From: an uncultured Gammaproteobacteria bacterium
GTDB lineage: Bacteria > Patescibacteriota > Patescibacteriia > UBA9934
Length of the DNA: 64,000 nucleotides
Assembly: GCA_964452565.1 (NCBI GenBank)
Contig: CAYVLY010000002.1
Span: forward strand, 22,661 to 86,660
Reading direction: 5' to 3'
The notes under the pieces were generated by a model. It made no database searches. It worked only from the letters and a program-made list of their open reading frames with translations, and was not told the DNA's origin. Position numbers and translations under genes: made by a program. Numbering within the stretch: the first letter of the stretch is position 1; every line of letters starts with the position of its first letter. Shown here one piece after another: positions 21,099 to 49,800 of the stretch.

Positions 21099-21388
21099 TG
21101 CCAGCTAACCAAGGCTGACCGGGTCGGGTATCGACGCCTCATATTAGCACAAGATCACTGCTGTGTCAATGGTAAGCCAAATAACCCACATTTTCCCTAA
21201 CACAGGGCGCGAATCTACGCTATAATGTAGCCATGGCGTTTAATGCCACGCAAACTGCAAATGCAATGGCCCGCACGCAGTTAAATAAAGAAAAGACTGC
21301 TGCACGCCGGGCAAGAACAGTAATCCCTCGTGCCAGTAGGGCTACTTTGCCTTCTAGAAAAAAACGTCGCTCCCGATCGCAAGTAAAC

Positions 21389-22270: not shown

Positions 22271-22276
22271 CGTCAT

Positions 22277-23494: not shown

Positions 23495-23495
23495 T

Positions 23496-24140
23496 ATGAC
23501 CCAAGCAAAAAAAATCGTTACCATCTTCTCCGTACTCTTTGGAATAGTTTTTTTCGCAATGCTACTCTCATTTATTCCAGGAGATAGAATTGAGTTTACA
23601 AACCTCCCAACAGATGAGGATAGTGAACTAACCATAGATGACCGTGATCCGATTTATGGTAGCAACAATCCTGATGTATTGATTTATCATTTTGGAGATT
23701 TTTCAAACTCATCAAGTGCTGAAGTGGCAGAGTCATTAAAGAATATCGCAGATTCAACAGACAATGTGACAATAGTTTGGAAGGACTTTCCTAATACAAG
23801 CCTTGATCCAGAATCATGGAACGCATCGATTGCAGCCAGGTGTGCACAAAAACAGGATGCATTTTGGGAATTCCATGACTATCTATTTGTATACCCAAAC
23901 CAACTGTCAAATGAGCTTTATGGTGACATTGCCACTGAGCTTGGGCTATGGCAATGGTCATTTAATCGATGTTTAAGTGGTGAAAAAACTACTGACTGGG
24001 TTGAAGATAGTTACAATCAAGGTATGGATCTTTCATTAACTGCAGCGCCAACGCTATTCATCAACAGCCAACCCTATGCTGGCTATATGAGCCAATCTGA
24101 TATCGAATCTATTATTGACTCTATTCTGCTTGGGCTTTAA
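23496..24140 (+). CDS. DsbA/BdbD-family thioredoxin-fold protein with degenerate active site
   Basis: N-terminal TM; DsbA-like ...DVLIYHFGDF-SNSS-SAE... where CPxC is replaced by SNSS; conserved downstream AARCAQKQDAFWEFHDYLF helix. Confidence 0.55.
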   Translation: MTQAKKIVTIFSVLFGIVFFAMLLSFIPGDRIEFTNLPTDEDSELTIDDRDPIYGSNNPDVLIYHFGDFSNSSSAEVAESLKNIADSTDNVTIVWKDFPNTSLDPESWNASIAARCAQKQDAFWEFHDYLFVYPNQLSNELYGDIATELGLWQWSFNRCLSGEKTTDWVEDSYNQGMDLSLTAAPTLFINSQPYAGYMSQSDIESIIDSILLGL

Positions 24141-31710: not shown

Positions 31711-32238
31711 CTACATTTTATACACTCTCCGGAGTATGTCTGTCAAGGTCTCGTCCTCCCGTTCAAGATTCTCAAAAACATACGGAAGCAATGATTCGCG
31801 GATTGCATTTGGATCTGCATCTTCAAGGGGGATCGATATCATTGGCTTCAGAACACTATTGAAATCCACATATAGAGTTTTGACAATCGGTGGTTCATAC
31901 ACTAAGGCAAACTCTTTGATATCTTTGTAATCATGATATGTCTCACCCACAACGATCCCCATATCTGTGACATGAACCTCCATACGCTTTGGGTGCTTCA
32001 GACCATTCATAAGGAGTATAACTCCAGTCATGAGAACAATGATCGCAAACAGATAATTACTTGTAATTATTGAGTAGACAAGTAATGCAGCTCCAATAAC
32101 TGAGGCTATGATGTACCAGCTCTTTGATCTATCATTCGGGGTGTATTCAAAAGCCTCCCAGGACACTATAGGTGTCCCAACATCCTCAATCTCATCGTAA
32201 TGCTCAACAGATTCTTGTTTTTCTTTATTTTTAGGCAT
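31711..32238 (-). CDS. hypothetical membrane protein (two TM helices, acidic N- and C-regions)
   Basis: ORF directly upstream of and co-directional with tRNA-Arg. Confidence 0.45.
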   Translation of the reverse strand: MPKNKEKQESVEHYDEIEDVGTPIVSWEAFEYTPNDRSKSWYIIASVIGAALLVYSIITSNYLFAIIVLMTGVILLMNGLKHPKRMEVHVTDMGIVVGETYHDYKDIKEFALVYEPPIVKTLYVDFNSVLKPMISIPLEDADPNAIRESLLPYVFENLEREDETLTDILRRVYKM

Positions 32239-32780: not shown

Positions 32781-33437
32781 CTACCCCTTAGCCAATGTGT
32801 ACTTCCAAATTTGATCAATGCCTGCGTTTTGAAGAACTTGAGCTGCGGCATTGATGGTAGCGCCAGTGGTCCAGACATCGTCGATGAGGAGTATCGAATT
32901 CAGTGTATCCTTCGGCTGGGCCTCAGGATGACAAATGAATGGGCTTTTTTTCATCGACTCAATGCGCTCGTGAACTTCGCGCTCGGTTTGGTGGCCGGTT
33001 GATCGTACGCGTTTGATTAGATTGACGACTGGTATATCAAGTTCCTCGGAAACAAACTCAGCTATCATTGCAGCTTGATCAAAACCACGCTTACAGCATC
33101 TTACCGAATGGAGTGGCACGGGCACTACCGCCTCGATCGAATGAATATGAACCAAATGCCTGAGTCCGATTAATGAGGACTGAAGTTTTAATCTAATGAT
33201 CTTCCAGGCGCTTTGATCAAAGTGATACTTCCATGAACATATTAATTGACGAACGATTGGATCGGCATACTGCCATGAATGCATATGTTGATCCTTGTCG
33301 ATAATTTGAAGCTTGCCTGGCTGCCAATATACAAAACACTCTTCACACAGCAGCGAACCTTCTTTGTTGCATTGAATACAAAAACGCGGGAAAACCGCGT
33401 CCTTGATTGTTTTTTTGATCTTATCGAATATCTTCAT
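32781..33437 (-). CDS. comFC: ComF family protein (double zinc ribbon + PRTase domain); listed ORF extends to 33536
   Basis: CIQCNKEGSLLCEEC zinc ribbon, PRTase motif ILLIDDVWTTGATINAA. Confidence 0.7.
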   Translation of the reverse strand: MKIFDKIKKTIKDAVFPRFCIQCNKEGSLLCEECFVYWQPGKLQIIDKDQHMHSWQYADPIVRQLICSWKYHFDQSAWKIIRLKLQSSLIGLRHLVHIHSIEAVVPVPLHSVRCCKRGFDQAAMIAEFVSEELDIPVVNLIKRVRSTGHQTEREVHERIESMKKSPFICHPEAQPKDTLNSILLIDDVWTTGATINAAAQVLQNAGIDQIWKYTLAKG

Positions 33438-33490
33438 ATACTCGTCATTCTGAGGCCTATGGCCGAAGAATCTACTCATCTCGAGTGGAT

Positions 33491-33514
33491 CCTTCGCTGC
33501 GCTCAGGATGACAC
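33491..33514. repeat. copy B of short dispersed repeat (ccttcgctgcgctcaggatgacac)
   Basis: see 3203-3225. Confidence 0.45.
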
Positions 33515-34056
33515 TAGTCCACCCATTCAAAATCATCTACAAGCCACTCCTCGCCTTCTTTGACAAGTGTGACTTCTATGGTTTGATACTTAACTGATGT
33601 GTTTTCTGGACTCTCGATTGACTCCTCACGCTGTGTTAAGACTTCTAGAACTTCTTGCGTATCAGAGACTTCTATCTGAGTAATCGATATAACATAGGTT
33701 GATACTCCATAGTAAACAGCATTACCATCACCTGATGCATCTTCTGCTAAATCTTCTAACCTACTTTGCAATGAACTAGTGGCAATGTCCATCACAGCAT
33801 CCACATTCTCGTAATCACCGTGGTTTGAAAAGCTTCCAAACCTCTCAACAAACACTCGGGCAATGGTTGAAGCATCTTCCTCATAGCCATCTAGGTCCAG
33901 TGGCTCAATAGATTCAAAATCCTGCATTTGACCATCATCTGTAAACGACCCTTGGTCATTCACTGGCTCTGGTCTTAATAACCACCAAACTACTCCAACC
34001 AACAAGATGATTAGTATGATTGCAAACAGTATTTCAAACTTGCGTTTTCTTTCCAT
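33514..34056 (-). CDS. membrane-anchored acidic protein, last gene of T4SS-like operon (possible VirB8-like)
   Basis: N-terminal TM then 150-aa periplasmic-type domain; positional analogy only. Confidence 0.35.
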   Translation of the reverse strand: MERKRKFEILFAIILIILLVGVVWWLLRPEPVNDQGSFTDDGQMQDFESIEPLDLDGYEEDASTIARVFVERFGSFSNHGDYENVDAVMDIATSSLQSRLEDLAEDASGDGNAVYYGVSTYVISITQIEVSDTQEVLEVLTQREESIESPENTSVKYQTIEVTLVKEGEEWLVDDFEWVD

Positions 34057-34058
34057 AA

Positions 34059-35999
34059 TTATTCACTTTTAGGTTGTTCGGGTTTTTCAGTTGGAGCACT
34101 AAATGACTCTTCAAACTCTTTTCGCGCACGCTCGATCTCTAGGAGTTGCTCTGGATTTGTAGTAATTAGCTGATCCTCATTATATGAAGCAACGACTTTG
34201 ACTGCTGCGTGCTTAGCACCTGCAAAGAAAATCCCTTCTCCAATGGCAGCTTCGAGCAATAAATACCGCTCGCTTTGAGTTAGGTTAAATGTCTCCGCGA
34301 TGATATCGATTCCTGCTGGAGACTGTTTCATCAAAAGCTGCAAAGCTGAGTTTGTAACAATCGCCTGGCCATAGGCACTTCGCAAAAAGTCATTCACATC
34401 CTGAGTAATTGTTGTAACTCCCAAGAAGTACTTTCGCGCACGCTTTACTAGAGCAAAGATGAACTTTGCAGAATCCTCATGCGTCATTAGCCACCAAGCC
34501 TCATCAATTGCCAGTATTCTCTTCTTTCGAACCGAACGCACAACATTCCAAATGTAGTTAACAATCGTATAGATTGCCATTGGCCGTAGCTCGTCCTCAA
34601 GATCACGAACAGAGAAGATAACAAGCTGATTGTCCATCTCTACAGTTGTAGGTGAATTCAAAAGACCAGCAAATGTTCCTTCTGTGTACTTTCTAAGTCG
34701 ATCGACAAGGTCGCCAGATCCTTCCATTCCTTCTAGAATCTCCTGCAAATCCTGCAAAATAGGATATTCAACTCCGTCTAAATTTGTAAGGTCAGGTGTT
34801 ATATCCTTTTTTGCATATGCTTCTAGGATTGCTCTATCAAGCATTGAATCCTCTGCTGGTGTGAACCCCATCTTTCCAGCTGCTCCGATTGGTTGACCCA
34901 TCATGATCCGCAAGAGACCTTTGATTGTGATAACAGCGCTTCGTAAGATATCTTCAACAGAAGCTTCATCACCAACAGCACGAGGTAGATCAAACGGATT
35001 AATCTTACTTTCTGAAGCCAATGACACATTGATATATGTTCCTCCCACAGCATCTGACAACGTCTTGTATTCCATCTCAGGGTCAATGACGATCACATCA
35101 GTTCCCATCATCATTGAACGCAAAATCTCAAGCTTAATTGCATAACTTTTTCCAGCACCAGATGTAGCGAATACAACAGCGTTTGCGTTTTGCAATGAAA
35201 ACCTATCAAACAAAATCAACGAGTTGTTATGACGATTGATTCCATACAGAATTCCCTTATCGCTTGTAAGATCTGATGATATGAATGGGAATGAAGAAGC
35301 AATCGGCGATGTGCTCATGTTAAATGTAATCATGAGCTCGTCATTACCAAGTGGAATCGTTGAGTTAAATCCTTGTTCAGCTTGGTAGAAACCTCGTTTT
35401 GTGTAAATCAGCTTTGAACCAAGAATTGATTCAAGTTGACTTGTGCGCTTATCAAGCTCCTCCTTGTCATTAGCATAAATCGTAATGTAAAACGCAAACT
35501 GGAAAAAGTGCTCAATTCCCTGCGTAAGATCATCGCGCAATTGCTCAACATCACGCAGAGCAGTCTCGCGGATTGGATCACGCGGCGCTCCTTTTTCATT
35601 ATCTGACACAATCTGTGCCTCCAAAACTCCAGTCTTATCTCGCAACTGCTTCAGAATCACCTCAGATGGAATTGGATAGAAAAACATCCCAATGTCGAGC
35701 GTTCCACTGTAGTTAATAACTGGCGCACCCCATCCAATAGTCACATATCGCGGATAGGTCACGATGAAAAGTGTTCGAACAAATGTGTCACCAATCTTTA
35801 AAAAGTCTGGATTCACCTGGAATGATGCAGGTGCAATAAGATCGCGGACTGTAACAGTCCCACGTCGATACACATACTCTTCTTCAAGCGTCTTTTTTTC
35901 CTGCAAAGCCTTTTCCTGATCAGGTGTAAGTTTTTTTGGCTTTTCTGCCTTTTTATCAGGCGTTTGGGCTTGCTTTAGTTGTTCTAACTCAATTGACAT
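34059..35999 (-). CDS. VirB4/TrbE/CagE-family type IV secretion ATPase, C-terminal (NTPase) portion
   Basis: Walker A ATSGAGKSYAIK, Walker B-like VIVIDPE, conserved ...ILAIDEAW... region; 646 aa. Confidence 0.8.
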   Translation of the reverse strand: MSIELEQLKQAQTPDKKAEKPKKLTPDQEKALQEKKTLEEEYVYRRGTVTVRDLIAPASFQVNPDFLKIGDTFVRTLFIVTYPRYVTIGWGAPVINYSGTLDIGMFFYPIPSEVILKQLRDKTGVLEAQIVSDNEKGAPRDPIRETALRDVEQLRDDLTQGIEHFFQFAFYITIYANDKEELDKRTSQLESILGSKLIYTKRGFYQAEQGFNSTIPLGNDELMITFNMSTSPIASSFPFISSDLTSDKGILYGINRHNNSLILFDRFSLQNANAVVFATSGAGKSYAIKLEILRSMMMGTDVIVIDPEMEYKTLSDAVGGTYINVSLASESKINPFDLPRAVGDEASVEDILRSAVITIKGLLRIMMGQPIGAAGKMGFTPAEDSMLDRAILEAYAKKDITPDLTNLDGVEYPILQDLQEILEGMEGSGDLVDRLRKYTEGTFAGLLNSPTTVEMDNQLVIFSVRDLEDELRPMAIYTIVNYIWNVVRSVRKKRILAIDEAWWLMTHEDSAKFIFALVKRARKYFLGVTTITQDVNDFLRSAYGQAIVTNSALQLLMKQSPAGIDIIAETFNLTQSERYLLLEAAIGEGIFFAGAKHAAVKVVASYNEDQLITTNPEQLLEIERARKEFEESFSAPTEKPEQPKSE

Positions 36000-36008
36000 A
36001 AGTAACGA

Positions 36009-36716
36009 TTAAAATCCTTCTTCGACCCTTAACTCGTTAAGAGGCGCGAGTCGTTGCGTATCAAATACGTCTGGATTATAAACTGTGTAAAAAAGTTCAA
36101 TAAGGCCTTGGGTATCAAGCATAGCGCTCTGTAGTCCCATTCCAACAAGCCCACCCTGAATAATGTTCATCCGTCCCATTAGTGAATCTCTGCGTTCCTT
36201 AAATTTCTTTTCATTCAGCTTTACAACAGAAGCTGGCATGATTGCTGCTGAAAGCTTTGTCATAAATCCCTTTTTCTTATCTGTTGCGGGATCATAAGGA
36301 ACAACAACATAGAACTTCTTCTGCATAATCTCTCCCAATTCAACAAGTTCATTCACAAATCCACGATAATCAATAATCTGTGTTCTCAAAAGATCGTTCT
36401 TTATAGTTCTCTCCTGCTCCTTAAGTGCCTCCATGTATGCATCAATGTTCATCTTTCTTGACTGAACAACAACCTGGATCGGATATTCAAGTCCGTTTAA
36501 GAACTGCATATATGACTGCACTGTTGCTTGTTGCTCGTCTTCTGACTTAAGTGCAAAGTTTATACTTGAAACCATGAAAACACCCCTCAAAGTTCCATCT
36601 TTTAGCACAACTGCATCTTCGCGGATCTCAGCAATGTCCAAAAATCTCTGAGTTGGTGGCCCTGGCTTTGCCTTGGCTAATTTTTTTGATTGCATTTCTT
36701 CCTGCTTTTTTTGCAT
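36009..36716 (-). CDS. VirB4-family N-terminal domain encoded as separate ORF (same frame as 34059..35999, interrupted by in-frame TAA)
   Basis: ...FLDIAEIREDAVVLKDGTLRGVFMVSSINFALKSEDEQQATVQSYMQFLNGLEYPIQVVVQSR... resembles N-terminal region of Gram-positive VirB4 homologues. Confidence 0.55.
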   Translation of the reverse strand: MQKKQEEMQSKKLAKAKPGPPTQRFLDIAEIREDAVVLKDGTLRGVFMVSSINFALKSEDEQQATVQSYMQFLNGLEYPIQVVVQSRKMNIDAYMEALKEQERTIKNDLLRTQIIDYRGFVNELVELGEIMQKKFYVVVPYDPATDKKKGFMTKLSAAIMPASVVKLNEKKFKERRDSLMGRMNIIQGGLVGMGLQSAMLDTQGLIELFYTVYNPDVFDTQRLAPLNELRVEEGF

Positions 36717-36719
36717 ATA

Positions 36720-37157
36720 CTAATCTTTTTCTGGATTATAAACTCCGCCTGTATTTACTACTAAGGCGATATCAGATAGCCGAGATCTCTCTAGCGGTCT
36801 CTTCTTTGGGGTGGGTGGGACTGGCTTTTCTTCTTCTTTCTTTAGCCCTTCTCTCAGCTGTGAATCGGAGAGTGCCTTATCCCAGACACGAACCATTGGC
36901 CTCCTCAAGGTCTGTATCATGCTAAGAACCACGTAGTGAAACGCTTGGCCGTTAACCTTCGCAAAGGCAAAAGTGACTCCAATCGCCAAGATTGGAATTC
37001 CGATTCCGACTACTGCGAAGATGTTCAAGAATATCCGATATACTAAAAAGTCTGCTAAAATCGTTCCCAACATTATCAAAAACTGACGCAGTGTAACTGG
37101 CCCTATAATCTTTGTCTCAACGTCTAGAAATTGTGGTACAACAAATTGTTCCGGCAT
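36720..37157 (-). CDS. small two-TM membrane protein, VirB3/PrgI-like candidate
   Basis: VPQFLDVETKIIGPVTLRQFLIMLG... then two hydrophobic helices; immediately upstream of VirB4 as in Gram-positive T4SS. Confidence 0.45.
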   Translation of the reverse strand: MPEQFVVPQFLDVETKIIGPVTLRQFLIMLGTILADFLVYRIFLNIFAVVGIGIPILAIGVTFAFAKVNGQAFHYVVLSMIQTLRRPMVRVWDKALSDSQLREGLKKEEEKPVPPTPKKRPLERSRLSDIALVVNTGGVYNPEKD

Positions 37158-37172
37158 AGACTCAGTATATCA

Positions 37173-39047
37173 TTAAAAGCTTATCTTATTATTAAAAGTC
37201 ACGATCGCTTCAATCTCAGCCGCGCTAAGGCTCTCTTCGCCAGTGTTACGCCTTTGTGTAGCGGCATCAGCGACAGTCATTCCTTTTGTAAGCGCCTCCT
37301 GAACTAATGCAATGTATAGATTATTAAGCGGGCTTTTGCGCCAAGCCTGAATTCCACGCACACGATCTTCATAATCAGTTTCTTCAAGTAACTCTAAGGT
37401 ATTGATCATTTTATTGGTTGCTTCTTTTGGATCAGATGACAACCGTCTGAATTCTGCAACCCCCATTGTTCCCAACTCCTCAATCGGACCAATAAGCTTT
37501 GAAACCTTCTTTACATCTGCAACCTTAACTGACGGCTCTGCCTGACGCTTTGGTGGTGCACTTGGTGCACTCAATCGAATTTTGGCTTTCTGAGGCCTTG
37601 CCTTTTCCTGAGCCTGCTTAACCTTTTCTTTATCTACTCTTGCGCGCTGACCCTCAAGCTCCTCTTTCTTTGATCTAGCCGCACTAACCCTTGCCTTTGG
37701 CAAAACTGGCTCAATAGACTCTGTTGGAACCGAGGAAGTAAGTGCAGCATGGCGCTCGTCTAGAACAGTCTTTTCCTGCTTTTTGACATCCACTTTGGGT
37801 TTTACTAACTTTTCTTTTTGTGGCTTGTGCAGCTCTGCATACCCTTTCTTTAGTATCAAAATTGTCTCATGGGATTGCTCTGCGCTCATTCCATACTTGT
37901 CCTGCAATAATGCGTCAGCTCTTTGCTCATTCAATCTTCCTCGAACAAAAGCCTCTGCAACCGATCTTGCTGACTTTTGTGACTGCTTCGCTGACTTAAA
38001 AATCAAACTAAGTTTTTCTGTTGCGCTATCTACAACCTTTAAGAGCTTTTGATCATGGGTTTTATTTTCATACAATCCTTTTTTCTGAAGATCTTTAGCA
38101 TGTGCTTTTACTTCAGCCTCTTCGTGCTCAAATAGATGACCAGAAATAACTGGAACATCAGTTGTAAGTGCATGTGGTACTGCTTTGATTGGAAGCGTCT
38201 CACGCTTTCGAGTTGCCTTTTCTGGTTTTGATTCTAGTTTAGGCCTTTCTACTGGCTCAGGCTTTTTCGGCTCTGGTCTTATTCTGGGAACTTTGGGAAC
38301 CGGAGGTTTTGACTGCTTTGGTTCTTCTGATTCGATCGAATCCGATATTTCTTGATCACTGGCAACCACCCCCTGCCCCTCCTTGGGAATGAGGGGAGCC
38401 GCGCCGCCCTTCTCCTGATTTTTGCGACTGGGTTCTGTAGTCTGTGTTCTGGGTTCTGCATCCTTACCACCCCCAAACCTTTCATCCAACACTGCAAGAA
38501 GCTTCTCAATCTGCTTGTCGTTGAGCTCCAAACCACCAATATTCATTGGCCGCTTCATCAAGGTCAAGGTTGACTCACGGTCGCGCTCCTTTTCAATATA
38601 TCCTTTTGAAAGATAAATAAAACGCTTCATGAGATTTTCTGGAAGCTCTAAGCCAATCTCGCGGGCATATTCTAGAAGCTCATCTTGCAATCCAGGCTTC
38701 TCAATCCTTAACTCAGGATAATTTGCCACATCACCACCCCAGGCCTTTATCGAATCCTCAATCCCTTTGATAAATGCGCTCAAAGGCAAAAGTCTAAATC
38801 CTACAACGTCTGCAGCAATCGCCTTTGCTTTTGTAGCATCAACGCCAAATGCCTTTTCGATAAACTCAGGGATCTGATCAACTTTTACTTGATCATTGAT
38901 GACTGCATCGGATAAATCCAAAAGCTCTTCCAAACGCTCTGGTGGAAGCTTATGCCTTGCCACAACTCCTTCTAGTTGATCAAAGATCTTAATGTCTAGA
39001 AGATAATCGCGAACTCTTGGTAATTTTCTAAATCCTCCGCTTGGCAT
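37173..39047 (-). CDS. hypothetical highly charged/low-complexity protein (624 aa) within T4SS-like operon
   Basis: No TM; K/E/P-rich central region; embedded GC-rich 16-mer shared with 45962-45978. Confidence 0.45.
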   Translation of the reverse strand: MPSGGFRKLPRVRDYLLDIKIFDQLEGVVARHKLPPERLEELLDLSDAVINDQVKVDQIPEFIEKAFGVDATKAKAIAADVVGFRLLPLSAFIKGIEDSIKAWGGDVANYPELRIEKPGLQDELLEYAREIGLELPENLMKRFIYLSKGYIEKERDRESTLTLMKRPMNIGGLELNDKQIEKLLAVLDERFGGGKDAEPRTQTTEPSRKNQEKGGAAPLIPKEGQGVVASDQEISDSIESEEPKQSKPPVPKVPRIRPEPKKPEPVERPKLESKPEKATRKRETLPIKAVPHALTTDVPVISGHLFEHEEAEVKAHAKDLQKKGLYENKTHDQKLLKVVDSATEKLSLIFKSAKQSQKSARSVAEAFVRGRLNEQRADALLQDKYGMSAEQSHETILILKKGYAELHKPQKEKLVKPKVDVKKQEKTVLDERHAALTSSVPTESIEPVLPKARVSAARSKKEELEGQRARVDKEKVKQAQEKARPQKAKIRLSAPSAPPKRQAEPSVKVADVKKVSKLIGPIEELGTMGVAEFRRLSSDPKEATNKMINTLELLEETDYEDRVRGIQAWRKSPLNNLYIALVQEALTKGMTVADAATQRRNTGEESLSAAEIEAIVTFNNKISF

Positions 39048-39069
39048 GTGTTTTTACATTCATGCGTTA

Positions 39070-41742
39070 TTACATTTCTCTACGTGCAAGATCCATCTGT
39101 CTTGCCATATTATTTAATTCACGGTTGGTCACTGTACGATCGGCTGCGGGTCTATTTCCTTCTGCCGCTACTGCAGAACGCATTTGATCAACAATATTTC
39201 GCACATTGTCTCTATCAGCATCGGTTTGCGCCGCATTGTACTGCTGTAGCAGTCTATCAACATCTTGACGACTGTATGATTCAGTAACTGCCCTGGTCAC
39301 ATCATTACCTGCCCCTGCATTAACTGCATTTTGAATATGATTTTGGAAATTGACAATAACATCTGGGTTACCTCGTGATGCCTCACGCAATGTTGCCGTA
39401 GCATTGGCATCCATTGAACCATCCGCAGCCACTTGTATTACATCTGTTGCAGCTTCTCCAGACCTTAGACGTGCTGTGTCATACATACGCCTATCATTTA
39501 CGCTGGCTGCAGCGGTACTAAGATCTCGCAATGCAGCCTGAATGTTAGCCTGAGCCGCAGCGTCAATGCCTTCCATATTATGTCCGCCACGTGCAAGCCC
39601 ATTAGCAACTTCTTGCGCACGTGCAGGGTCTGCAACATGATCTGCAGTAATATTCCCAGCATCAACCACACCAGCTCGCACTGCCTCAGCGATTTGATCA
39701 GCAGATGCCTGATCCAGGTTTACATCACCAGTAAATCCAGTAAGTGCCGCGTTCTTAACTTCATCTTTAACACCACGACCAGCCTTAAGCTGATCAAGCA
39801 TGTTCTCCGTGCGCTGCGATCCATCCGGGGCAGTCCATGAACGAACTGTTTTATTCTCAAGCGCCTGTCGAATTTCTGGATCTGCAATATCATCTGCTGA
39901 GAGTTGATTCACCTTAAAGTCGCTATCGGAGACAATATCGTTGAGCTCTTTCTGAGTATCAAAATTGGGATCTGCTGCGACCTTACCATCAATCCATTCA
40001 CGCAAGTTTCCAGCCTTTGTCTTCTTGAAATCCTTTTTCTGCTTGTCATCCGTGAGCAACTCATTTTTGTTCTTGTCAACATGCTGCATAGAAGCTCGCA
40101 TGAATTGCTTGTATGCATCTGGATCCATGTCCTTCTTGAGTTTCTTTCTAAAAGTAGAATCTGTTGTAGCGTCAAGCATAAGAGCTTCTTGCCTTCTTTG
40201 CTCCGATAGAGTCATTGCTTGAGGTTTTCCAGTTCTTGGATCAACCTGCACAGAACCAGCTCTTGCTACACGCTCCTCTATTGTCATTCCCTGAACCTCC
40301 TCACGTGCCTTTTCGCGACCTGCAATATCTGGAGCTGCAGCACCACGTCTCACAGCGCCTGCTGCTCCCATAACACGCGTTCCAACAGCACGGCCAATAA
40401 AGCCACCCCTTTCCGCCATTGCCTGTCCAGCACCCATTAAACCTTTGCTAAGCTTCTGACCAACTCCGAACCTTCCCTCGATCTGTCTTCCAGCCTGCTT
40501 TCCGGTCCATCTAGCTCCTCGATATGCAGTAGAGGCCGGTAGAGTAAGTGCACTTTTTACCATCTTCTTTCCAACGTCTTCGGTTACAAGCTTTCCTGCA
40601 ATATTTCCAAGTTGCTGCGCTGCAGAGCTGGCAACTTTAAATCCAGTCATGATGAGAATCAGGGCGATACCCAAACTTACAAGCTTTTCTGATAGGAAAA
40701 TCTCAGCTAATAGCGTAGGGATATCCTCAGTTCCTTCAAAGTCCAATCCCTCAGATACGGCAATTGGACCTGCTGAGGCCGCTGCCAGACCAAGCCATAG
40801 GAAAAAGGTTAGAATCGGGCCAAGTGTCAAAGCTGCTGTAAACATGTTCCACCACTCCTTATAGCGACCGCCAGCTTCACCAAACAATTGTGTAATACCT
40901 CCCAAGAAAAATGCAATTGGTGACAGGATCACTAGCACCCAGAGAACAATGATTCGATATAAATAAACAACTGCCAATATGATAAGTACTCCTAGGACAA
41001 CCAAGAGCAGCGACAAAACAACAAAGAATTCCGCAAACATTGTATAGAGTTCAACCCCTGTTTGACCTAGAGCTGTTTGGGTGTCCCCCATCACTACAAA
41101 ATCATTGAGCTGGAACAAGCTCATAAAGTTACCGGCAGCTATATCACGCAAAGCATTCACAAAAGTGAACATGATTACCTGCGAAACATCGATCATGATA
41201 AGACAAATCGTTCGACTAAAGTTTACAAGAACAACAGCTGTGAAGAATCGGGGTAGTTGAGCTTCCCACTGGGCCTTTGAGTATCCAATGATTGTCTGCA
41301 GTGCGATAACCAATAGCACAACAATTACAAACATGTTTACAACATCTCTAACTAGCGGCCATCCAATGTCAATTATTGCGCTGTCACCAAAGTTGTTATA
41401 ACCAAGAATCGGGATGATTAATGCACCTAAGACCATTACAATCAGTTTTCCAACGACTGAGAGTAAAACAGCTAGCATTTGGGCTAGTAGTCCAAGAACA
41501 GCCTCAAACAGTGTTGATAGTGAGCTGGAGAGTATATCATCCAGATCTGACGCAAAGGCCACGCTTGGCAGTGATGCCAAAACTACGAAAATAAACGCAA
41601 AAAATACAATGCCCGATCTGTGTATTGTTACCCATTTACACAGTTGCAATGCACCCAATTTTATTTTTTCCATACTGTGAGTATTATAGCACGGCAGAGT
41701 CGTTTTTTTGAGTGTACTTTGTTGGTTTGAGGATAAAAACAT
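39070..41742 (-). CDS. VirB6/TrbL-like polytopic membrane protein with long hydrophilic C-terminal extension
   Basis: Signal/TM at N-terminus (start may be internal Met), ~8 hydrophobic helices over first 380 aa, then 500-aa Ala/Asp/Arg-rich domain. Confidence 0.5.
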   Translation of the reverse strand: MFLSSNQQSTLKKTTLPCYNTHSMEKIKLGALQLCKWVTIHRSGIVFFAFIFVVLASLPSVAFASDLDDILSSSLSTLFEAVLGLLAQMLAVLLSVVGKLIVMVLGALIIPILGYNNFGDSAIIDIGWPLVRDVVNMFVIVVLLVIALQTIIGYSKAQWEAQLPRFFTAVVLVNFSRTICLIMIDVSQVIMFTFVNALRDIAAGNFMSLFQLNDFVVMGDTQTALGQTGVELYTMFAEFFVVLSLLLVVLGVLIILAVVYLYRIIVLWVLVILSPIAFFLGGITQLFGEAGGRYKEWWNMFTAALTLGPILTFFLWLGLAAASAGPIAVSEGLDFEGTEDIPTLLAEIFLSEKLVSLGIALILIMTGFKVASSAAQQLGNIAGKLVTEDVGKKMVKSALTLPASTAYRGARWTGKQAGRQIEGRFGVGQKLSKGLMGAGQAMAERGGFIGRAVGTRVMGAAGAVRRGAAAPDIAGREKAREEVQGMTIEERVARAGSVQVDPRTGKPQAMTLSEQRRQEALMLDATTDSTFRKKLKKDMDPDAYKQFMRASMQHVDKNKNELLTDDKQKKDFKKTKAGNLREWIDGKVAADPNFDTQKELNDIVSDSDFKVNQLSADDIADPEIRQALENKTVRSWTAPDGSQRTENMLDQLKAGRGVKDEVKNAALTGFTGDVNLDQASADQIAEAVRAGVVDAGNITADHVADPARAQEVANGLARGGHNMEGIDAAAQANIQAALRDLSTAAASVNDRRMYDTARLRSGEAATDVIQVAADGSMDANATATLREASRGNPDVIVNFQNHIQNAVNAGAGNDVTRAVTESYSRQDVDRLLQQYNAAQTDADRDNVRNIVDQMRSAVAAEGNRPAADRTVTNRELNNMARQMDLARREM

Positions 41743-41751
41743 CTGCTAACT

Positions 41752-41779
41752 GGGTCTGACCCTAGTTGGGTCTGACCCC
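41752..41779. repeat. REP-like units gggtctgaccc x2 flanking RAYT
   Basis: same 11-12-mer recurs at 42358-42369 on other side of transposase. Confidence 0.45.
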
Positions 41780-41791
41780 CTGCATTAAAGC

Positions 41792-42340
41792 CTATAAACC
41801 ACCTAAAACAAAATCTCGATATTTTCCTACAGCAACTTTGTGATTGTACGAGAATAGCCTCAAAATATCCCCTATATCTAACCAATCATTAGGTCTGCAA
41901 TAATCTGCAGTGCTTCTGTAACTACTCCACTGCCAGGCCGCGGGATGACTCACAATACCAGCTCGCACGGGATTTAAAACAATATACCTAATAGCTTCCA
42001 GAAAATATTCGTCATTAGCAATAAGTGAAGAGTGGAAACGACCCTGAAAAACATGACCTTTGCAATTTATTTTCTTACTATACAATCGACCAAACTGACC
42101 ATTTATATACTGAATGCTACTCGATATATTGGCTCTTGGAGTTTCTATTAAGGCATGGTAATGGTTGGGCATAATGCAATATGCATACACTCTAATCGCA
42201 TATTTACGAACAGCTTTGTTTAACAGCCCAAGTAGGTCTTTCTTATTTTGGTCGGATCGAAAAATGGACCTCTTCCAATTGCCCCGTGCGCTTATGTGAT
42301 ACATTGCGTGCTTAAATTGTATCCTCGAAGGTCTTGGCAT
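41792..42340 (-). CDS. REP-associated tyrosine transposase (IS200/IS605 TnpA-like, HuH Y1); start at internal Met, listed ORF extends to 42577
   Basis: YHISARGNWKRSIF..., HuH motif YAYCIMPNHYHALIE, catalytic Tyr region WQWSSY. Confidence 0.75.
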   Translation of the reverse strand: MPRPSRIQFKHAMYHISARGNWKRSIFRSDQNKKDLLGLLNKAVRKYAIRVYAYCIMPNHYHALIETPRANISSSIQYINGQFGRLYSKKINCKGHVFQGRFHSSLIANDEYFLEAIRYIVLNPVRAGIVSHPAAWQWSSYRSTADYCRPNDWLDIGDILRLFSYNHKVAVGKYRDFVLGGL

Positions 42341-42357
42341 ATATCTTTCTTTATTTT

Positions 42358-42369
42358 GGGTCTGACCCC
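42358..42369. repeat. REP-like unit gggtctgacccc within 7-bp-stem hairpin ttttggg..cccaaaa
   Basis: direct repeat of units at 41752-41779. Confidence 0.4.
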
Positions 42370-42426
42370 AAAATATTAGGCATTGATGCGGGCCGTGAGA
42401 CGGCCCGCTACGTACTCGAATACAAG

Positions 42427-44331
42427 TTATTCGAGGGTTCGGCAATCTGAGCTTGAAAGTGTATACACTTCCCCATCCTCTACCTCGAAGCACAGTGCAT
42501 ACGAACCATCTGTGTTTTCGTGACACAGGTCCGAAGTACTTGAGCTCGAAGCACAGTAATGGTTGTAGATCGCCCACTCAGATGAGGTGCGCATGGTCAT
42601 TCGATACCAGCCGTCGTAAAGCCCGTACCAAGCCATGTCTGTTTCGCTGTCATATTCTGCGAGGTCTGCGCTGCTGTATCCCCAGCCGGAATCGACACCA
42701 ACGCCGGTTGCTGCGACGTCATTGCCGTTGACGGATGAACTGAAGGTCTCACTGACCTGCAGGCCAATCCAAGGACCATCAATGCGAACCCATGATAGGC
42801 CCTCGCCAAGATTATCAGCAAGATAATCGCTGGGATCATCCTGCTCTCTCCCATCATCTGAAGGATCATCTTGCACGTCAGGCTCTCCAGTGTCAGGATC
42901 GTCCTGATGATCATCTGGCTCATCCAATGGATCACCAGTATCATCGGGTTCGTCGTCCTGTCGTTCATTGCTGTAGTCGCCTGTGTCCTCCGGCTCATAG
43001 TCCTCAGGTTCATCGTCGTAGTCATCCGTATCTTCCCATTCACCAGTGTCACCACTGCCGTCCCACGATTCTCCGCCGCAGTAGAGTAGATCGTCATAGG
43101 TAATGCACCCGAGTGAGCGATCACAGTCCCCGACTGACCCTTGGATATCACGGACTGCGCCATCATCGAGTAGGATGACTTCGCGGGCCCAAAACCCAAG
43201 CGCCAAGTAGGTGTCCCAATCAAAAATTGGGTATGCAGCTCCCTGCATGATGACGTATACGTCTGAGGTTGAGGTCTCTGTGACGAGCGTGCCCGCGCGC
43301 AATGTGGCTGTTTCGACACTCTCGTAGTAGTAGTCGAAGAGCTCAGTGTTGGTTGAGAGGTCGTCGTATGTTGAGGCGCTGATGCCCCAGCTTTTGAGTA
43401 TGGCCTGCCAGTGATCAGACGGTACGCGGTAGCGCAAGTAGTCCTCTCCATCCTGTGCGCCAACAAGTAGCCACACTACCCCCTCATCATAGACAGCCGT
43501 GATCTGAGTCTCATCGCTGAAGTTGGCGCCAGTCATGTAGCATGCGAGCTCTGTCTCGTCGACATATGCCACCTGTGAAAAATCCCAGTTGTAACTCCAG
43601 AATACACCCTCATCCTCAATGAGATGCTTGTAGCCATCATTGAGCATGTACACGTCAGGTGAATTCGGCGTCATGACCAGGGTTCCATCTGGATGCCAGA
43701 CAGGTGTTTCCATCCGAGATGAGTAGAGGTGTCCGCCCGACAGGTCACAGACGAACTCAGAGGTGAGATATGCGTCATAGTTGCCGGTGTTGGCATCATA
43801 GGCCTCGATCATCAGACCTTCGATCGACGTACCCTGAAGGCCATCATCTGAGGCGTATCCACTATGGCGACCGATGTGAAGATGGTCGCCAGATGAATCG
43901 CCTGTGGTGCCCTCGATGGCAATGAGCTGACCCTGCGCTACTTCCTCGCCGCTCTGGATCAGTACGTCATCAAGGTGCGCCAGGATGATGTAGGTGCCAT
44001 CTGACATATCGATGTTTACGTGGATACCAAATCCACTTGATTCATCGCTGTGCACATAGGCGGTGCCGCTGATAGGCGCGTAGATGTAGTCATCGCTGTC
44101 ATTAGGTGTATCCAAATCCAGATCGTAGCGTGTTGAGGTGTAGGTGTGCGAGTATTCGCCGTCTGCGCCTTGCGTACACAGCGAGGTGTAGCCATAGGCG
44201 AAAGGCATCTGAATGGTCACAACATCCTGACCACCTCCACCAAAGCCCTCGCAGCCATGTGCCAGCGCGAAGGTCATGAATGTGATGAAAACGATGAGAA
44301 ACGAGTAAAGGGCGTGACGAAAGTTGAACAT
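42427..44331 (-). CDS. secreted M23 (LytM/lysostaphin-type) metallopeptidase with acidic low-complexity C-terminal region; start at Met 44331
   Basis: Signal peptide MFNFRHALYSFLIVFITFMTFALA; M23 motifs YAPISGTAYVH, GFGIHVNID, ILAHLD, GDHLHIGRH; GC content visibly higher than backbone. Confidence 0.75.
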   Translation of the reverse strand: MFNFRHALYSFLIVFITFMTFALAHGCEGFGGGGQDVVTIQMPFAYGYTSLCTQGADGEYSHTYTSTRYDLDLDTPNDSDDYIYAPISGTAYVHSDESSGFGIHVNIDMSDGTYIILAHLDDVLIQSGEEVAQGQLIAIEGTTGDSSGDHLHIGRHSGYASDDGLQGTSIEGLMIEAYDANTGNYDAYLTSEFVCDLSGGHLYSSRMETPVWHPDGTLVMTPNSPDVYMLNDGYKHLIEDEGVFWSYNWDFSQVAYVDETELACYMTGANFSDETQITAVYDEGVVWLLVGAQDGEDYLRYRVPSDHWQAILKSWGISASTYDDLSTNTELFDYYYESVETATLRAGTLVTETSTSDVYVIMQGAAYPIFDWDTYLALGFWAREVILLDDGAVRDIQGSVGDCDRSLGCITYDDLLYCGGESWDGSGDTGEWEDTDDYDDEPEDYEPEDTGDYSNERQDDEPDDTGDPLDEPDDHQDDPDTGEPDVQDDPSDDGREQDDPSDYLADNLGEGLSWVRIDGPWIGLQVSETFSSSVNGNDVAATGVGVDSGWGYSSADLAEYDSETDMAWYGLYDGWYRMTMRTSSEWAIYNHYCASSSSTSDLCHENTDGSYALCFEVEDGEVYTLSSSDCRTLE

Positions 44332-44572: not shown

Positions 44573-45017
44573 ACTGTAGACAGAGACGCTCTTTAGTTCG
44601 CAGGCGCTTGAGGACGCGAGTTTCACGCGCCCGCTCACTAAAGAAAATAGAAGTTGTACGGACATGTGTGCTTCCCACTCCCCTAAAGAAACACATTTTG
44701 AAACGTATCGGGCCACAGCATCGTTTGCCAATGCGCAAAGTTCTCTCCTCTTAATACACATTAGGTTACGGGTGGTGCAGTCGCAATACGTTAATCAAAC
44801 CTGGCTCGAGATTTGGTTTGATCGGGTGCTGTGCAGAATGCAAAGCTGCGAACGTTCTATATCTATTGCACTCGAGATCGCGGTGGCTCGCAATAGGCAA
44901 AATGGGTGAAAATGGCAAAAAAGGTGTTGAAGGGCTTCAACACCTTTTTGATTCGCGCCGAGCCTTAGCTCGAAATCCTGTCTAACGCCCTTTGACACCC
45001 AATGGGGATAAGTCAAA

Positions 45018-45691
45018 CTACCAACGTTACACGTTGGTAGTTTTTGAAACAATGTGTTGTAATATAAAAACACTCCCTACTAATTATTAGCTGGGAGTTT
45101 ATGCGTCCATATACTTTTCTCACAGGAGACTACTACCATATATACAATCGGGGTGTCGATAAACGAGATATATTCTTAGATCAATATGACTATCTTAGAT
45201 TTATGAAATCTCTTTATACTATCAATAACAAAGTTCACAAACCCGGCAATTCGATTTCCAAGTATTCATCAAAGCTACTTCTCAAAAATGACCTTTTTGC
45301 ATCTGTGCACTGCTTCTGTCTAATGCCAAATCATTATCACCTGCTCGTCGAGCAAGTTAATGATAATGGAATTACTAAATTGATGAATAGACTTGGCAAT
45401 AGTTACACAAAATACTTTAACGAAAAATATAAACGTAAGGGTAGATTGTTCTCGAGCAGCTTTCAGTCAGTATCGGTTAAAAGCACGGAGCAGCTCATCC
45501 ACCTTTCAAGATATATTCACAACAACCCAAAAAAGATAAATGAGCGTATCAGCTCATATACCTGGTCAAGCCTTAGGGCATATCTCAACGACAAGATCTA
45601 TCCCTTTATATCGACGAACAAAATAATGAGTCACTTCATAAGTAAAGACGATTACTTGCAATACATAACTACCAACGTTTAACGTTGGTAG
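45018..45691 (+). mobile_element. IS200/IS605-family-like insertion element (left hairpin, tnpA, right hairpin)
   Basis: ctaccaacgttacacgttggtag at 45018-45040 and ctaccaacgtttaacgttggtag at 45669-45691 bracket a HuH transposase gene. Confidence 0.6.
45101..45682 (+). CDS. tnpA: IS200/IS605 family Y1 (HuH) transposase
   Basis: YHIYNRGVDKRDIF, HuH motif CLMPNHYHLLVE, Tyr region TWSSLRAY. Confidence 0.8.
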   Translation: MRPYTFLTGDYYHIYNRGVDKRDIFLDQYDYLRFMKSLYTINNKVHKPGNSISKYSSKLLLKNDLFASVHCFCLMPNHYHLLVEQVNDNGITKLMNRLGNSYTKYFNEKYKRKGRLFSSSFQSVSVKSTEQLIHLSRYIHNNPKKINERISSYTWSSLRAYLNDKIYPFISTNKIMSHFISKDDYLQYITTNV

Positions 45692-45853
45692 TTGGTCAAG
45701 CATAGGAGGGGGTTAGTTGTCAACATGTTTTGCAGTGTTTTATCCACAGCTTGTGTGTATGCGAAATCCGCCGGATGGCGGATTTTTGGCGAAAGTTGCG
45801 GAAATATCGAAGCTCGGGCTCGAGTTTGACTTTTTTAAAAAAAACTTGACAGA

Positions 45854-45989: not shown

Positions 45990-46670
45990 ATGTTCCGCAC
46001 CTACGCGTTCATGCTCATCGCTCTCCTCGCGGCCCTGGTGGGCTGCGAGAACACCAACCCCGACACCGGCGACACGCCCGACGACACCAACATCCCGGTC
46101 GAGGTCGTGACCATCACCGTGCAGGCCACGCTCGACGGCATCGAGGTCGAAAAGCAGCCTGTCTCGCTGGTCGACACCGCAGACGAGAGCCTGGCCGATG
46201 GCATCACCGGCGAGCCCATCTCCGTCGAGCTGCGCGGCACCGCCCAAGTCAAGGTCGGCCCCACCGATGCCTACGTCACCGCCGACGGCTACCGCATCCA
46301 CGAAATCGGCGACGCCGAGTACGTGCACCGCGCTGCCTACGTCGACACCGACACCTCGGAGGACCCGGTCACGGTGAGCCTGAACCGCTACGTCTACGGC
46401 GAGGACGTCGAGTGCGACGTGTACCGCGATGGCGCCTACATGACGACCTTCGACGAGGGCACCATCGAGACCCAGGACGGCTACAAGCTGGCCTTCCCCG
46501 AGATGACGGGCGACGGAAGCTGGTTCGAGTTCGACGGCAACAGCGTCGAGTTCGTAGGCGACCTGCCGGACGACGGCTTCTACCTGATCGACTTCGAGGT
46601 CCAGGACTCCGCGATCGTCTTCAGCTACGGCTCAGAGATGTACACGAACGAGATCACCTGCCACCTCTAG
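45990..46670 (+). CDS. putative lipoprotein in very high-GC island (~63 % GC)
   Basis: Signal + lipobox LAALVGC; codon third positions almost all G/C unlike rest of window; overlapping ORFs in other frames are GC artefacts. Confidence 0.55.
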   Translation: MFRTYAFMLIALLAALVGCENTNPDTGDTPDDTNIPVEVVTITVQATLDGIEVEKQPVSLVDTADESLADGITGEPISVELRGTAQVKVGPTDAYVTADGYRIHEIGDAEYVHRAAYVDTDTSEDPVTVSLNRYVYGEDVECDVYRDGAYMTTFDEGTIETQDGYKLAFPEMTGDGSWFEFDGNSVEFVGDLPDDGFYLIDFEVQDSAIVFSYGSEMYTNEITCHL

Positions 46671-46825: not shown

Positions 46826-49800
46826 TTACTCTTCAACTGTTATAAATCCATCATAGTAAATCCACGGATCATAGCCTGCATAAAATTCTGGGTAGTAGTC
46901 ATAGCTGCATTCACTGTCAGATGCCTGACTGCTCAAATCTCCATACGCGTCAAAGCATCCGGCTTCGTCGCAAACTCCAGCGCACCATCCCCAGTTGTCT
47001 CGGACATGAACACGTGGTTGATAGATACATGATTCACCGTCATTGCTACATGGGCTGTTTGTTAAGTTGCCATTGTCATCAGTAACACACACTGGCAATC
47101 CACCTGGATCTGTACATCGATATGAGTGCTGGTATAAGAAGTAGTTTGGATCACATGAATCTCCAGTAAGCCCCCACTCTGTATCAAGACTACACTTAGA
47201 TAGTACTGTAGTATCCTCCTCGCCACCATCAGTACCGTCTTGCAAACCACGGTGGTTTTTATAGTAGTTCTCGTCATCATCAGATCCTGACTCATCACCA
47301 TCCCCCCAATCCACAATCACCCTTCGAAGCGGCAGCTGATCCTTATCTGCTGCAGCATAGAACTTGATAGTTGCACGGTAGAATCCTTCACTACCCTCTT
47401 GGTCTCCAGTGCTTTGGTTGTTCAATGTGATGGCACTCTCAGTTCCCTCTGAACAATACCGAGCTCCACAATCATCAGAGTCTACTGCCCAAACAGTCGG
47501 AGGTGTGCCAGTGTCACGAATATCATAATCATATTCGGTGTAATCCGTTGTATCATAGGTTGGATCTCCAACATCTGACAGATCAGATACTGCGGTATAA
47601 ACATCGTTATCATCGATATTACCTGGCCAAGTCCACATACTTCCCAGTCCGAGAGGATTTGCAAACAACTGGTTTATACGATCAAACACATCGTCCAAAT
47701 CCTCTGAATTCGTATCCCATGGAGTTGCCTCGCTCGCATCCGGAATGTACTCAAAGTAGATATATGATCTCCCATCTGGAGCTGTAGGATCATAACTAGT
47801 TCGCTCATAAAAGTCTGTGGCGTTGTACAGTTCATAATCACATACCTCGTCATTACCCTCATCATGGATGGAAATCTTAGAGGTCTTTGATGTCCCACCT
47901 GCGCAGGACGCAACTATTTCTGGACCATATGAGTAAATATCGTTTTGATCAAAATCACTGTATTGTTCAGGATTTATGGCTGATCCAAATGGTGAGTTGG
48001 TTGTTTCATACGTATATTGCAAGGCGGTCTCTCTTTCTGATATCACCTCTTCTGCAGCTGCATAGAACATGCTAGTTAATGGTGCGGTTACACCGTCGCT
48101 AGATGAACCGGTCTGCAGTATATCTCTACATCCAGGATATGGTGTATATAGATCTGGAATGTCTAAGTATCTATAGCCCTGTGTTCCAGAATCAGAATAC
48201 CCATCGCTTCCTCCACTAAAGGAAACCATATCCCAAATACTCATATCACGCTCAATTCCAAATGACACACAGTCGTCATAGTCACTCAGCATTAATGTAA
48301 ACTCTTCATAGTCAGTAGGATCATCATCACTTTCATATTCATTCCCGCTGTCAAATGCGCGGTGTGACCATATATAATAGTAAGTTTCAGTATAATTACT
48401 GCTCTTCATGCTACCCTCTTGGTCATAGTTCCAGCCTTGACCACGTATTTTACTGTCCTCACTTGATAAAAAGTCGTCATAGCAGGACTCCCCCTGTTCT
48501 CCATCATCCTCACTCGCATGAATGGCGTCTTCTGGAATACACACATATGGACAGTCATTCTGAGCTTCAACACATGCCTGAGCAGCCATGTCAGTCCAAT
48601 TCAATGTACTTCCGTTATCAATGTCATAATCATCGTGACCACACCTTCCCAAGATGGCAAAGTACCCTTCTGGACATGTGAGATTACCTGCGCATTCATT
48701 TATTCCTGTCCATTGATTACCTTTATTACAGCTGCTTTCTATTTCAGCACAGGCAACACCCCCGCCACTGTAACCATATTCATCATTGTAATTCTCACTT
48801 AACAAATCTAGGTATGGGCTCACATATGTACACATGTACATGTCATTGAAAAATCCTGCAGTCTTGTACTTAGCATACAAGTCAGTTGCACCTGATAGCT
48901 GATCAACTGGGAACCATGTCAGACATGCTCCAGTGTATTGATCGCCTTCAATATTTAATCCTGTATCTCGCTCCAAACAGTATCCCTCAAGTCCGTATAG
49001 TGTATTCTCCTCAGTAATACGATCGCAAGTTGCATCTGCCTCTGCTGTAGTTGCATCAGGACTGATACAGTCAGATGGATCTGTACATATTGCACCAGCA
49101 ACCGGACTTGTTGCTGAACAAATCCCAATGAATGATTCAGCCAAGTATGAGGAAGATGGGCTTAGATATACAGATACTCCACCACTATTAGTAACCTTTG
49201 CATATGAACAAACACAGTCCTCAGAGGCAGCACAGGTCTCCACCTGTCCAAAGCCAGACAAGAACGACCGAGGAGTAGCTGCCCCGAAGCCAGTGCTAAG
49301 AAGTAATGACTCTTCCATGTCGGTTGTAGTGCTCAGCGTGGATGCCAATGAATTTGTGTAACTCCACTCACTTATAACACCCTCACCGAACGGACTATTT
49401 ATTTCAGGCTGTGCTCGGCAAGCCTGACCTTCGTACATTGCCTCTTCAAATGGCTCGCCATCCATTGCCAAGAAACATGAACCGCTATAACAGCTTCCTT
49501 GTTTATATGCGACAGATGTGAAGCAGCTCTCGCCAGACTCACAACTCAAGTCGCTCAAATCACAATAATCACCTTCGATAACACAGGTTCCAGAGAGACA
49601 CTCTTCGCCAGAGGCGGTGTCACAATCATCATCGTCATTACATACATCCGCTCCAACTGTGTAACAGACACCTGGGACACACTCAGCGCCTGAAGTTTCA
49701 CAATCATCTTCGTCAGTACATGCAGATCCATTATCTGTACAGTATCCGACCGCACAATCCTCTGAATATTCATCAGTACATGCCCCTGCTATGTATCCAA

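Follow-up and report, generated by a model that had tools for sequence, protein, structure and literature searches.

A probable Uhrbacteria type IV secretion system encoded in one operon with comFC

The DNA considered here is a stretch of 64 kb from contig CAYVLY010000002.1 (assembly GCA_964452565.1), which we call the window. It carries a compact cluster of minus-strand genes resembling the core of a type IV secretion system (T4SS), followed at its end by a comFC gene. What kind of machine does this cluster encode, and what might that machine carry? An earlier note on this DNA had proposed a reduced T4SS-like operon, with a VirB6-like protein, a VirB3-like protein, a split VirB4, a VirB8-like candidate and ComFC, next to a secreted peptidase. 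We searched all large open reading frames (ORFs) of the window against the Pfam and NCBIfam families and compared the cluster with the corresponding loci of related genomes; all coordinates are window positions. The cluster is very probably a chromosomal, vertically inherited T4SS of Candidatus Uhrbacteria (class ABY1), to judge from gene content and gene order, and would belong to the Patescibacteria clade of such systems that derives from the MPF-FATA conjugation machinery of monoderm bacteria. Its cargo is a question on which two answers remain in close competition.

The operon and its products

Seven tightly packed minus-strand genes span 32781-41742. An M23 peptidase gene lies upstream of them, beyond a RAYT transposase flanked by repetitive extragenic palindromic (REP) sequences. 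Every ORF that the earlier note had placed in the cluster was found there, on the minus strand. Its figure of 3-22 nt for the spacing was essentially right: the gaps between consecutive operon genes, from the VirB6-like gene to the VirB8-like gene, are 22, 15, 3, 9 and 2 nt.

The 646-aa protein encoded at 34059-35999 (minus strand) is, by its sequence, a VirB4-family ATPase. It matched NCBIfam NF045971 (CD1110 family; 6.1e-103, 345.5 bits against a cutoff of 325) over model positions 173-729, and Pfam P-loop_TraG (2.7e-26); a Walker A motif (SGAGKS) and a Walker B motif (DEAW) can be read in it. The 235-aa product of the preceding gene (36009-36716, minus strand) is assigned from its family matches as a TrsD-like protein, homologous to the N-terminal domain of VirB4. 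These matches were to the VirB4_plasma N-terminus (1.4e-8) and to TrsD (4.6e-5) in NCBIfam, and the protein aligned to the beginnings of VirB4 models (positions 2-105 of CD1110, 8-150 of TIGR00929 and 92-235 of the Mycoplasma integrative and conjugative element (ICE) model). Its precomputed Pfam family is PF26593 (TraC-like), and an 80-sequence profile of it aligned with pSK41 TrsD in hhalign (E 4.5e-5, 112 columns).

Here the 235-aa ORF ends in a TAA that is in frame with the 646-aa ORF, whose ATG comes 9 nt later, and the earlier note had regarded the two as a split VirB4. Among the related loci (described below), both genes were found in 79, always as separate ORFs, and in 63 of these their reading frames differ. 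In the genomes L076 and L078, insertions of 1.2 kb and 7.4 kb lie between them, so the two proteins can be encoded apart. Identity in related loci is 53-81% for the TrsD-like protein and 70-87% for VirB4. Because the ORFs are always separate and mostly differ in frame, the pair represents the old arrangement of TrsD plus VirB4 and no broken gene. The assignment to the VirB4 family was correct, with NF045971 above its cutoff; the idea of a split gene was not.

Two of the smaller membrane proteins could be assigned with the help of family models. The 145-aa protein with two transmembrane (TM) segments encoded at 36720-37157 (minus strand) matched Pfam PF12666, PrgI (2.1e-7, 31.8 bits against a cutoff of 27), and has 37-68% identity across 77 loci; its earlier description as VirB3/PrgI-like is confirmed. 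The 180-aa protein encoded at 33514-34056 (minus strand) is bitopic, with an N-terminal TM helix, a linker and an NTF2-like domain. This fold, and Pfam VirB8 matches in 11 of 54 homologues, bear out the VirB8-like candidate.

The first gene of the operon, an 890-aa ORF at 39070-41742 (minus strand), probably starts at M24 (position 41673), judging from database copies, which have the same length of 867 aa. About 7-8 TM helices are found in the first ~380 residues (~350 in the 867-aa form), and the C-terminal part is a variable hydrophilic tail of ~500 aa. The protein itself had no VirB6 match among the Pfam and NCBIfam hidden Markov models (HMMs). For VirB6 there was likewise no Pfam match in 18 family members at E<=5 and no support from a profile search of PDB sequences, and hhalign comparisons with pCF10 PrgH and pSK41 TrsL both failed. 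A profile of the TM domain gave no bridge to annotated VirB6/TrbL proteins among the best 150 of 17,111 representatives. The VirB6 signal comes from fold comparison only, which gave a moderate structural match. At the level of fold, then, the protein is a candidate VirB6-like polytopic protein of an extended type, from which a membrane translocon could be built. The earlier VirB6 call therefore finds this structural match on its side and fails at the HMM level, where the note itself had proposed to check it.

Between the VirB6-like gene and prgI lies the gene for a 624-aa protein, which we call p624 (37173-39047, minus strand). It was found at this place in every locus that reaches that far. 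The protein is soluble, without a TM segment, and alignment shows conserved domains at residues 1-195 and ~430-624 with a variable charged linker between them. No match to p624 was found in Pfam, NCBIfam or PHROGs, in Pfam for its 20 aligned homologues, in a profile search of PDB, or among the transfer proteins of pCF10 (24) and pSK41 (5) compared with it by hhalign. Neither p624 (by tblastn) nor the TM domain of the VirB6-like protein had a match in 72,556 plasmids. Judged by these searches, p624 is a lineage-specific member of the operon, an orphan with no assignable family; the earlier note, too, had assigned it no function.

Gene order in relatives and kinship with known systems

Relatives were sought with the 646-aa protein, taking one genome per species. 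There were 428 genomes with relatives, and the best 80 were taken as loci for comparison with the window proteins by tblastn. VirB4 identity among these best 80 is 70-87%, and wherever the record titles carry a meaningful label they name Candidatus Uhrbacteria or unclassified Patescibacteria. Many records with an Uhrbacteria-type locus (L003, L007, L008 and others) are titled "uncultured Gammaproteobacteria bacterium", and one Kapaibacterium; these look mislabelled.

The order M23-VirB6-p624-VirB3-TrsD-VirB4-VirB8-comFC is kept in the 80 species genomes wherever the contig extends far enough. Estimated median intergenic gaps in the relatives are 6, 24, -13, 4 and 26 nt, and about 0 nt at the junction of the 180-aa gene and comFC, after allowing for a false N-terminal extension of the query. 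Because this gene order is shared by 80 species genomes, the cluster is far beyond what chance would produce. The earlier note had asked whether related genomes have these genes in synteny or scattered. They are not scattered, and M23 and comFC are conserved neighbours.

The setting of the cluster is that of an ordinary chromosomal region. Around it are the housekeeping genes gatB, miaA, thrS, dnaE, pheST, rseP, clpB, prs, ksgA, prfA and groEL, and its GC content is typical of the genome. Among all large ORFs of the 64-kb window, no family match was found to a relaxase, a type IV coupling protein (T4CP) or an integrase, nor to VirD4 or VirB9/10/11; the absence of VirD4, relaxase and VirB9/10/11 from the window had been noticed before. 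The window also contains no replication genes of a mobile element. A scan for promoters and terminators did no better than shuffled sequence (25 promoter-like sites versus 23.5 expected) and gave one useful site, a terminator-like hairpin 3' of comFC (32598-32581). Because gene order is conserved across relatives and the surroundings are housekeeping genes, we conclude that the operon is vertically inherited and chromosomal, and is no mobile element. The synteny of the 80 loci, the separate TrsD-like and virB4 genes in 79 of 79, the housekeeping context and the typical GC content together support a vertical, non-mobile T4SS.

Systems of this kind have been described. A survey of 3,035 Patescibacteria genomes (Quinonero-Coronel et al. 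2025, PMC12102498) found that Patescibacteria VirB4 proteins form a monophyletic clade nested in MPF-FATA, that TrsD is the commonest accessory protein beside VirB4, and that PrgI/VirB3 homologues are present. In the same survey VirB6 was scarce and divergent, VirB8 homologues were found almost only in class ABY1, PF18895 pilins were widespread, and M23 or other hydrolases replaced VirB1. Relaxases were near absent, and the whole clade was concluded to be non-conjugative. In class ABY1 the T4SS was co-located with comF, recG and radA. TrsD was reported to be essential in S. epibionticum.

The locus shares with this clade, to which the system of Southlakia epibionticum (Wang et al. 2023) belongs, a chromosomal position without a relaxase, an MPF-FATA-type VirB4 next to TrsD and PrgI/VirB3, a VirB6-like candidate, a nearby peptidase as a substitute for VirB1, a PF18895 pilin and, as in ABY1, the neighbours comF, recG and radA. 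It differs in that its VirB6 equivalent matches no HMM and is of an extended type with a 500-aa tail, in the 624-aa orphan between virB6 and virB3, and in having a single pilin domain within a 450-aa protein that also has a C39-like peptidase domain, in place of an array of small pilins. The likeness to minimised Patescibacteria systems that had been suggested for this operon is thus well founded, since the closest genomes are Uhrbacteria or other Patescibacteria and the parts list is that of PMC12102498. The locus is an instance of an already described system and not a new kind.

The Trs system of pSK41/pGO1 has the same gene order of VirB3-like TrsC, TrsD (~230 aa) and the VirB4 TrsE (~670 aa). 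Like the locus described here, the Gram-positive plasmid systems Trs and Tra (pIP501) include NTF2/VirB8-like proteins (TraH, TraM), and their operons encode a cell-wall hydrolase. Unlike it, they are on mobile plasmids and encode a relaxase, a VirD4 coupling protein, a topoisomerase and SSB; their VirB6 (TrsL, of the TrbL family) is a short protein that HMMs recognise, and their hydrolase is of the CHAP/SLT type, not M23. In the Prg/Pcf system of pCF10 (Enterococcus faecalis) the VirB4 protein PrgJ is a single protein of 796 aa. That system also encodes adhesins (PrgB), a relaxase (PcfG) and a T4CP (PcfC), and we detected no similarity of the VirB6-like protein to PrgH. Helicobacter pylori ComB and archaeal Ced are powered by VirB4 and, like the window examined here, lack a relaxase and a coupling protein. 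Both import DNA and do not export it, which makes them a functional precedent for an import hypothesis. ComB differs in being a diderm system with VirB7/9/10 homologues, whereas no VirB9 or VirB10 family match was found here; Ced uses CedA/CedB, and the CedB match here scored 42 bits, far short of the cutoff of 700. Neither ComB nor Ced is encoded in an operon with comFC.

Peptidase, pilin and DNA-handling genes beside the core

The M23 gene (42427-44331, minus strand) encodes a 634-aa protein that matched Pfam PF01551 (1.8e-14, 54 bits against a cutoff of 28.7). Its sequence shows HxxxD-like and HLH metal-binding motifs, with a hydrophobic signal at the N-terminus, in agreement with its earlier description as a secreted M23 peptidase. 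The higher GC content ascribed to the gene was also found, at 0.54 for positions 43001-44000 versus ~0.43 in the neighbours. In 22 of the 29 long loci the M23 gene precedes the VirB6-like gene, in a linkage looser than that within the operon (median gap 68 nt). We regard this secreted or anchored LytM-type protein as the candidate cell-wall hydrolase of the system, an analogue of VirB1.

Between the M23 gene and the operon, the RAYT at 41792-42343 (minus strand, inside the ORF 41792-42577) matched NF047646 (4.3e-26, above cutoff) and Pfam Y1_Tnp (1.9e-12). It is flanked by GGGTCTGACCC palindromes, with repeats at 41750, 41766 and 42356. Both the family match and the palindromes agree with the earlier description of a REP-flanked RAYT at this place. 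Most related loci have no RAYT at this position; the element has inserted between the M23 gene and the operon and is no part of the T4SS.

Several other features lie near the M23 gene. Two different REP-flanked RAYTs are found there, at 41746-42369 and 45016-45702, and five loci (L002, L021, L033, L007 and L023) have a RAYT of one type or the other in or close to the spacer that separates M23 from virB6. Their presence there in other species suggests a recurrent REP/RAYT hotspot. A 226-aa ORF at 45990-46670 (plus strand), with no match among the families searched, has a lipoprotein-like signal (LVGC), is very acidic and lies in an island of 60% GC against a background of ~43%. It may have been acquired horizontally, or its GC content may follow from a composition rich in D, E, G and T, like that of the acidic C-terminal region of the M23 protein. 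Next to it, a 3042-aa ORF (46826-55954, minus strand) had a weak CBM_4_9 match as its sole family match. In L018 and L038 its C-terminal part is conserved, directly preceding the M23 gene, and the protein may be a surface adhesin.

On the other side of the cluster, 8 kb away, the window contains a gene that the earlier note missed. Its 450-aa product (24150-25502, plus strand) has a T4SS_pilin domain (Pfam PF18895, 2.2e-10, 40.9 bits against a cutoff of 26.6) and a C39-like domain (Peptidase_C39_2, 3.6e-7), and weakly matched NF045849, a pilin-like conjugal transfer protein of the Mycoplasma ICE (6.1e-5). The secreted protein consists of a Cys-rich N-terminal domain, a VirB2-like hairpin of two TM segments and a C-terminal C39-like peptidase domain. 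We found no mention of such a fusion of pilin and peptidase in the main text of PMC12102498 or in the literature searched for PF18895. In at least eight more distant Uhrbacteria loci the pilin gene adjoins radA, and the block of p405, DsbA-like, pilin-C39 and radA genes is convergent to recG and the T4SS operon. On the complete chromosome L045, the pilin block and the T4SS cluster are contiguous within 20 kb. The pilin-C39 protein is probably a pilus or surface component of the same T4SS.

Three genes precede the pilin gene, at 21233-24140 (plus strand). The first encodes a basic protein of 345 aa that ends in a hydrophobic hairpin, the second the 405-aa, TM-anchored p405, which includes an acidic stretch and an ectodomain that is probably beta-rich, and the third a DsbA/thioredoxin-like protein. 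The 405-aa and DsbA-like genes are kept with the pilin gene in L045, L068, L071 and L077; because of this conservation, their products may help to assemble the Cys-rich pilin protein.

The operon ends with comFC, as the earlier note had reported. As called, the ORF extends over 32781-33536 (minus strand) and overlaps the VirB8-like gene. Alignment to homologues and to the ComF model begins only at residue ~34-53, and comFC therefore probably starts at the ATG at 33437, giving a gene of 32781-33437. The false extension of 33 codons is a read-through of a REP-like palindrome, which occupies the spacer between the two genes (33438-33513, minus strand; GTCATCCTGAGCGCAGCGAAGGATC ... CTCAGAATGAC). 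The product, a putative ComF-family protein of phosphoribosyltransferase type with an N-terminal zinc finger, is above the cutoff for Pfam Pribosyltran, and CxxC...CxxC and DDVxTTG motifs can be read in it. In 71 loci comFC directly follows the VirB8-like gene, often overlapping it, outright so in L008 and L045. It stays the terminal gene of the operon even where the identity of ComFC falls to 24-30%.

Downstream of the operon, recG (26817-28916, minus strand) encodes a protein with wedge and helicase domains, and radA (25506-26795, plus strand), which had been mentioned before as lying nearby, matched TIGR00416 with 490 bits. Among the 29 long loci, recG is present in 19 and radA in 11. A gene for a 175-aa protein without a family match (31711-32238, minus strand) lies between comFC and recG in 25 of the 29, on either strand, and is a possible further associated gene.

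What the system may carry, and what it means

In the scheme that we favour, TrsD, VirB4 and VirB3 would energise a channel of VirB6 and VirB8 in a single membrane. The M23 enzyme, possibly with the C39-like domain, would cut peptidoglycan, either the cell's own or that of the host, and the pilin protein would build a surface filament that contacts the host cell. The machine would then move macromolecules between host and epibiont and would not conjugate DNA. The direction that we prefer is import of nucleic acid, with imported strands passed to ComFC, RadA and RecG, and p624 may act as a cytoplasmic adaptor where a coupling protein would otherwise work. We prefer import because comFC keeps its place at the end of the operon down to 24-30% ComFC identity and because radA and recG are nearby. 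A role in DNA uptake is plausible from these neighbours and has been proposed earlier in the literature. Import is nevertheless a tentative choice, with a likelihood somewhat short of even.

Five points weigh against this reading. The pilin gene lies 8 kb from the operon in this genome. The comFC product matched TIGR00201 (4.9e-23) with 82 bits, far below the trusted cutoff of 233. There is no coupling protein within the window. The essential role of the Saccharibacteria T4SS is independent of ComEC-dependent competence (PMC12857230). Finally, the import step is drawn only from the neighbouring genes, whose order could have been inherited with no functional link between them. A more specific version, in which the T4SS of Uhrbacteria and ABY1 has been rewired for import, with a pilin-C39 pilus and M23 breaching the host envelope, a VirB6/VirB8/VirB4 channel, ComFC and then RadA/RecG as receivers, and p624 in place of VirD4, seems rather doubtful to us.

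The strongest competitor is export of proteins or other effectors into the host bacterium, or a conduit into it through which nutrients are extracted, with comFC, recG and radA being neighbours by shared regulation or inherited order. We consider effector export and nucleic-acid import about equally possible, and would not put either above an even chance. The T4SS is essential for epibiotic growth of Southlakia epibionticum, with a role described as completely unknown, and current hypotheses are effector delivery and acquisition of nucleotides or nucleic acid (PMC11665869, PMC12857230). That comEC is dispensable in Saccharibacteria while the T4SS is essential, and that effector delivery has been proposed there, favours export. 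So do the M23 peptidase in the cluster and the pilin-C39 fusion 8 kb off, both of which could attack the host wall, and the lack of a T4SS-specific DNA-processing gene in the window. On the other hand, the window contains no identifiable effector or coupling-protein gene, and comFC is terminal, often overlapping virB8. Because this linkage and overlap persist while ComFC has diverged to 24-30% identity, more than inherited order seems to hold comFC in place. Tubular structures, possibly T4SS pili, and uptake of host RNA have been reported in a cultivated relative (bioRxiv 10.64898/2026.06.21.733656).

It is very unlikely that the cluster is a remnant or an active part of a conjugative element (an ICE or plasmid) that exports DNA. 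The homologues of VirB4, TrsD, PrgI and VirB8 are nearest to Gram-positive conjugation proteins of the CD1110, pSK41, pCF10 and Mycoplasma ICE families, and two RAYT transposases are nearby; but the lack of relaxase, T4CP, integrase and replication genes in the window, the housekeeping flanks and typical GC content, the synteny across 80 species with a VirB4 divergence that looks vertical, and the absence of p624 and of the VirB6-like TM domain from 72,556 plasmids all argue against it, and PMC12102498 concludes likewise for the whole clade. We rejected the mobile-element reading on the missing relaxase, T4CP and integrase, the synteny and the flanks. That VirB4 is a pseudogene cut by a nonsense mutation in a decaying cluster can be dismissed, since the shared frame and the TAA with 9 nt between the pieces are the sole signs of it, whereas the 79 loci refute it with separate and often differently framed or distant ORFs, both pieces are highly conserved, pSK41 has the same TrsD plus TrsE arrangement, and TrsD is reported to be essential in S. 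epibionticum.

The locus is a clean and well-conserved example from ABY1, in which all four parts of the inner-membrane core can be named (VirB3, VirB4 with TrsD, a VirB6-like protein and VirB8), with the VirB6 call based on fold evidence only. What it adds is modest: fold-level evidence for VirB8 and VirB6 in Uhrbacteria, a conserved orphan subunit of 624 aa and a pilin-C39 fusion. In the single species tested so far, epibiotic growth requires the Patescibacteria T4SS. A ComFC encoded in the same operon, the conserved orphan p624 and the unusual pilin-peptidase fusion provide concrete handles for testing whether such a system imports nucleic acid.

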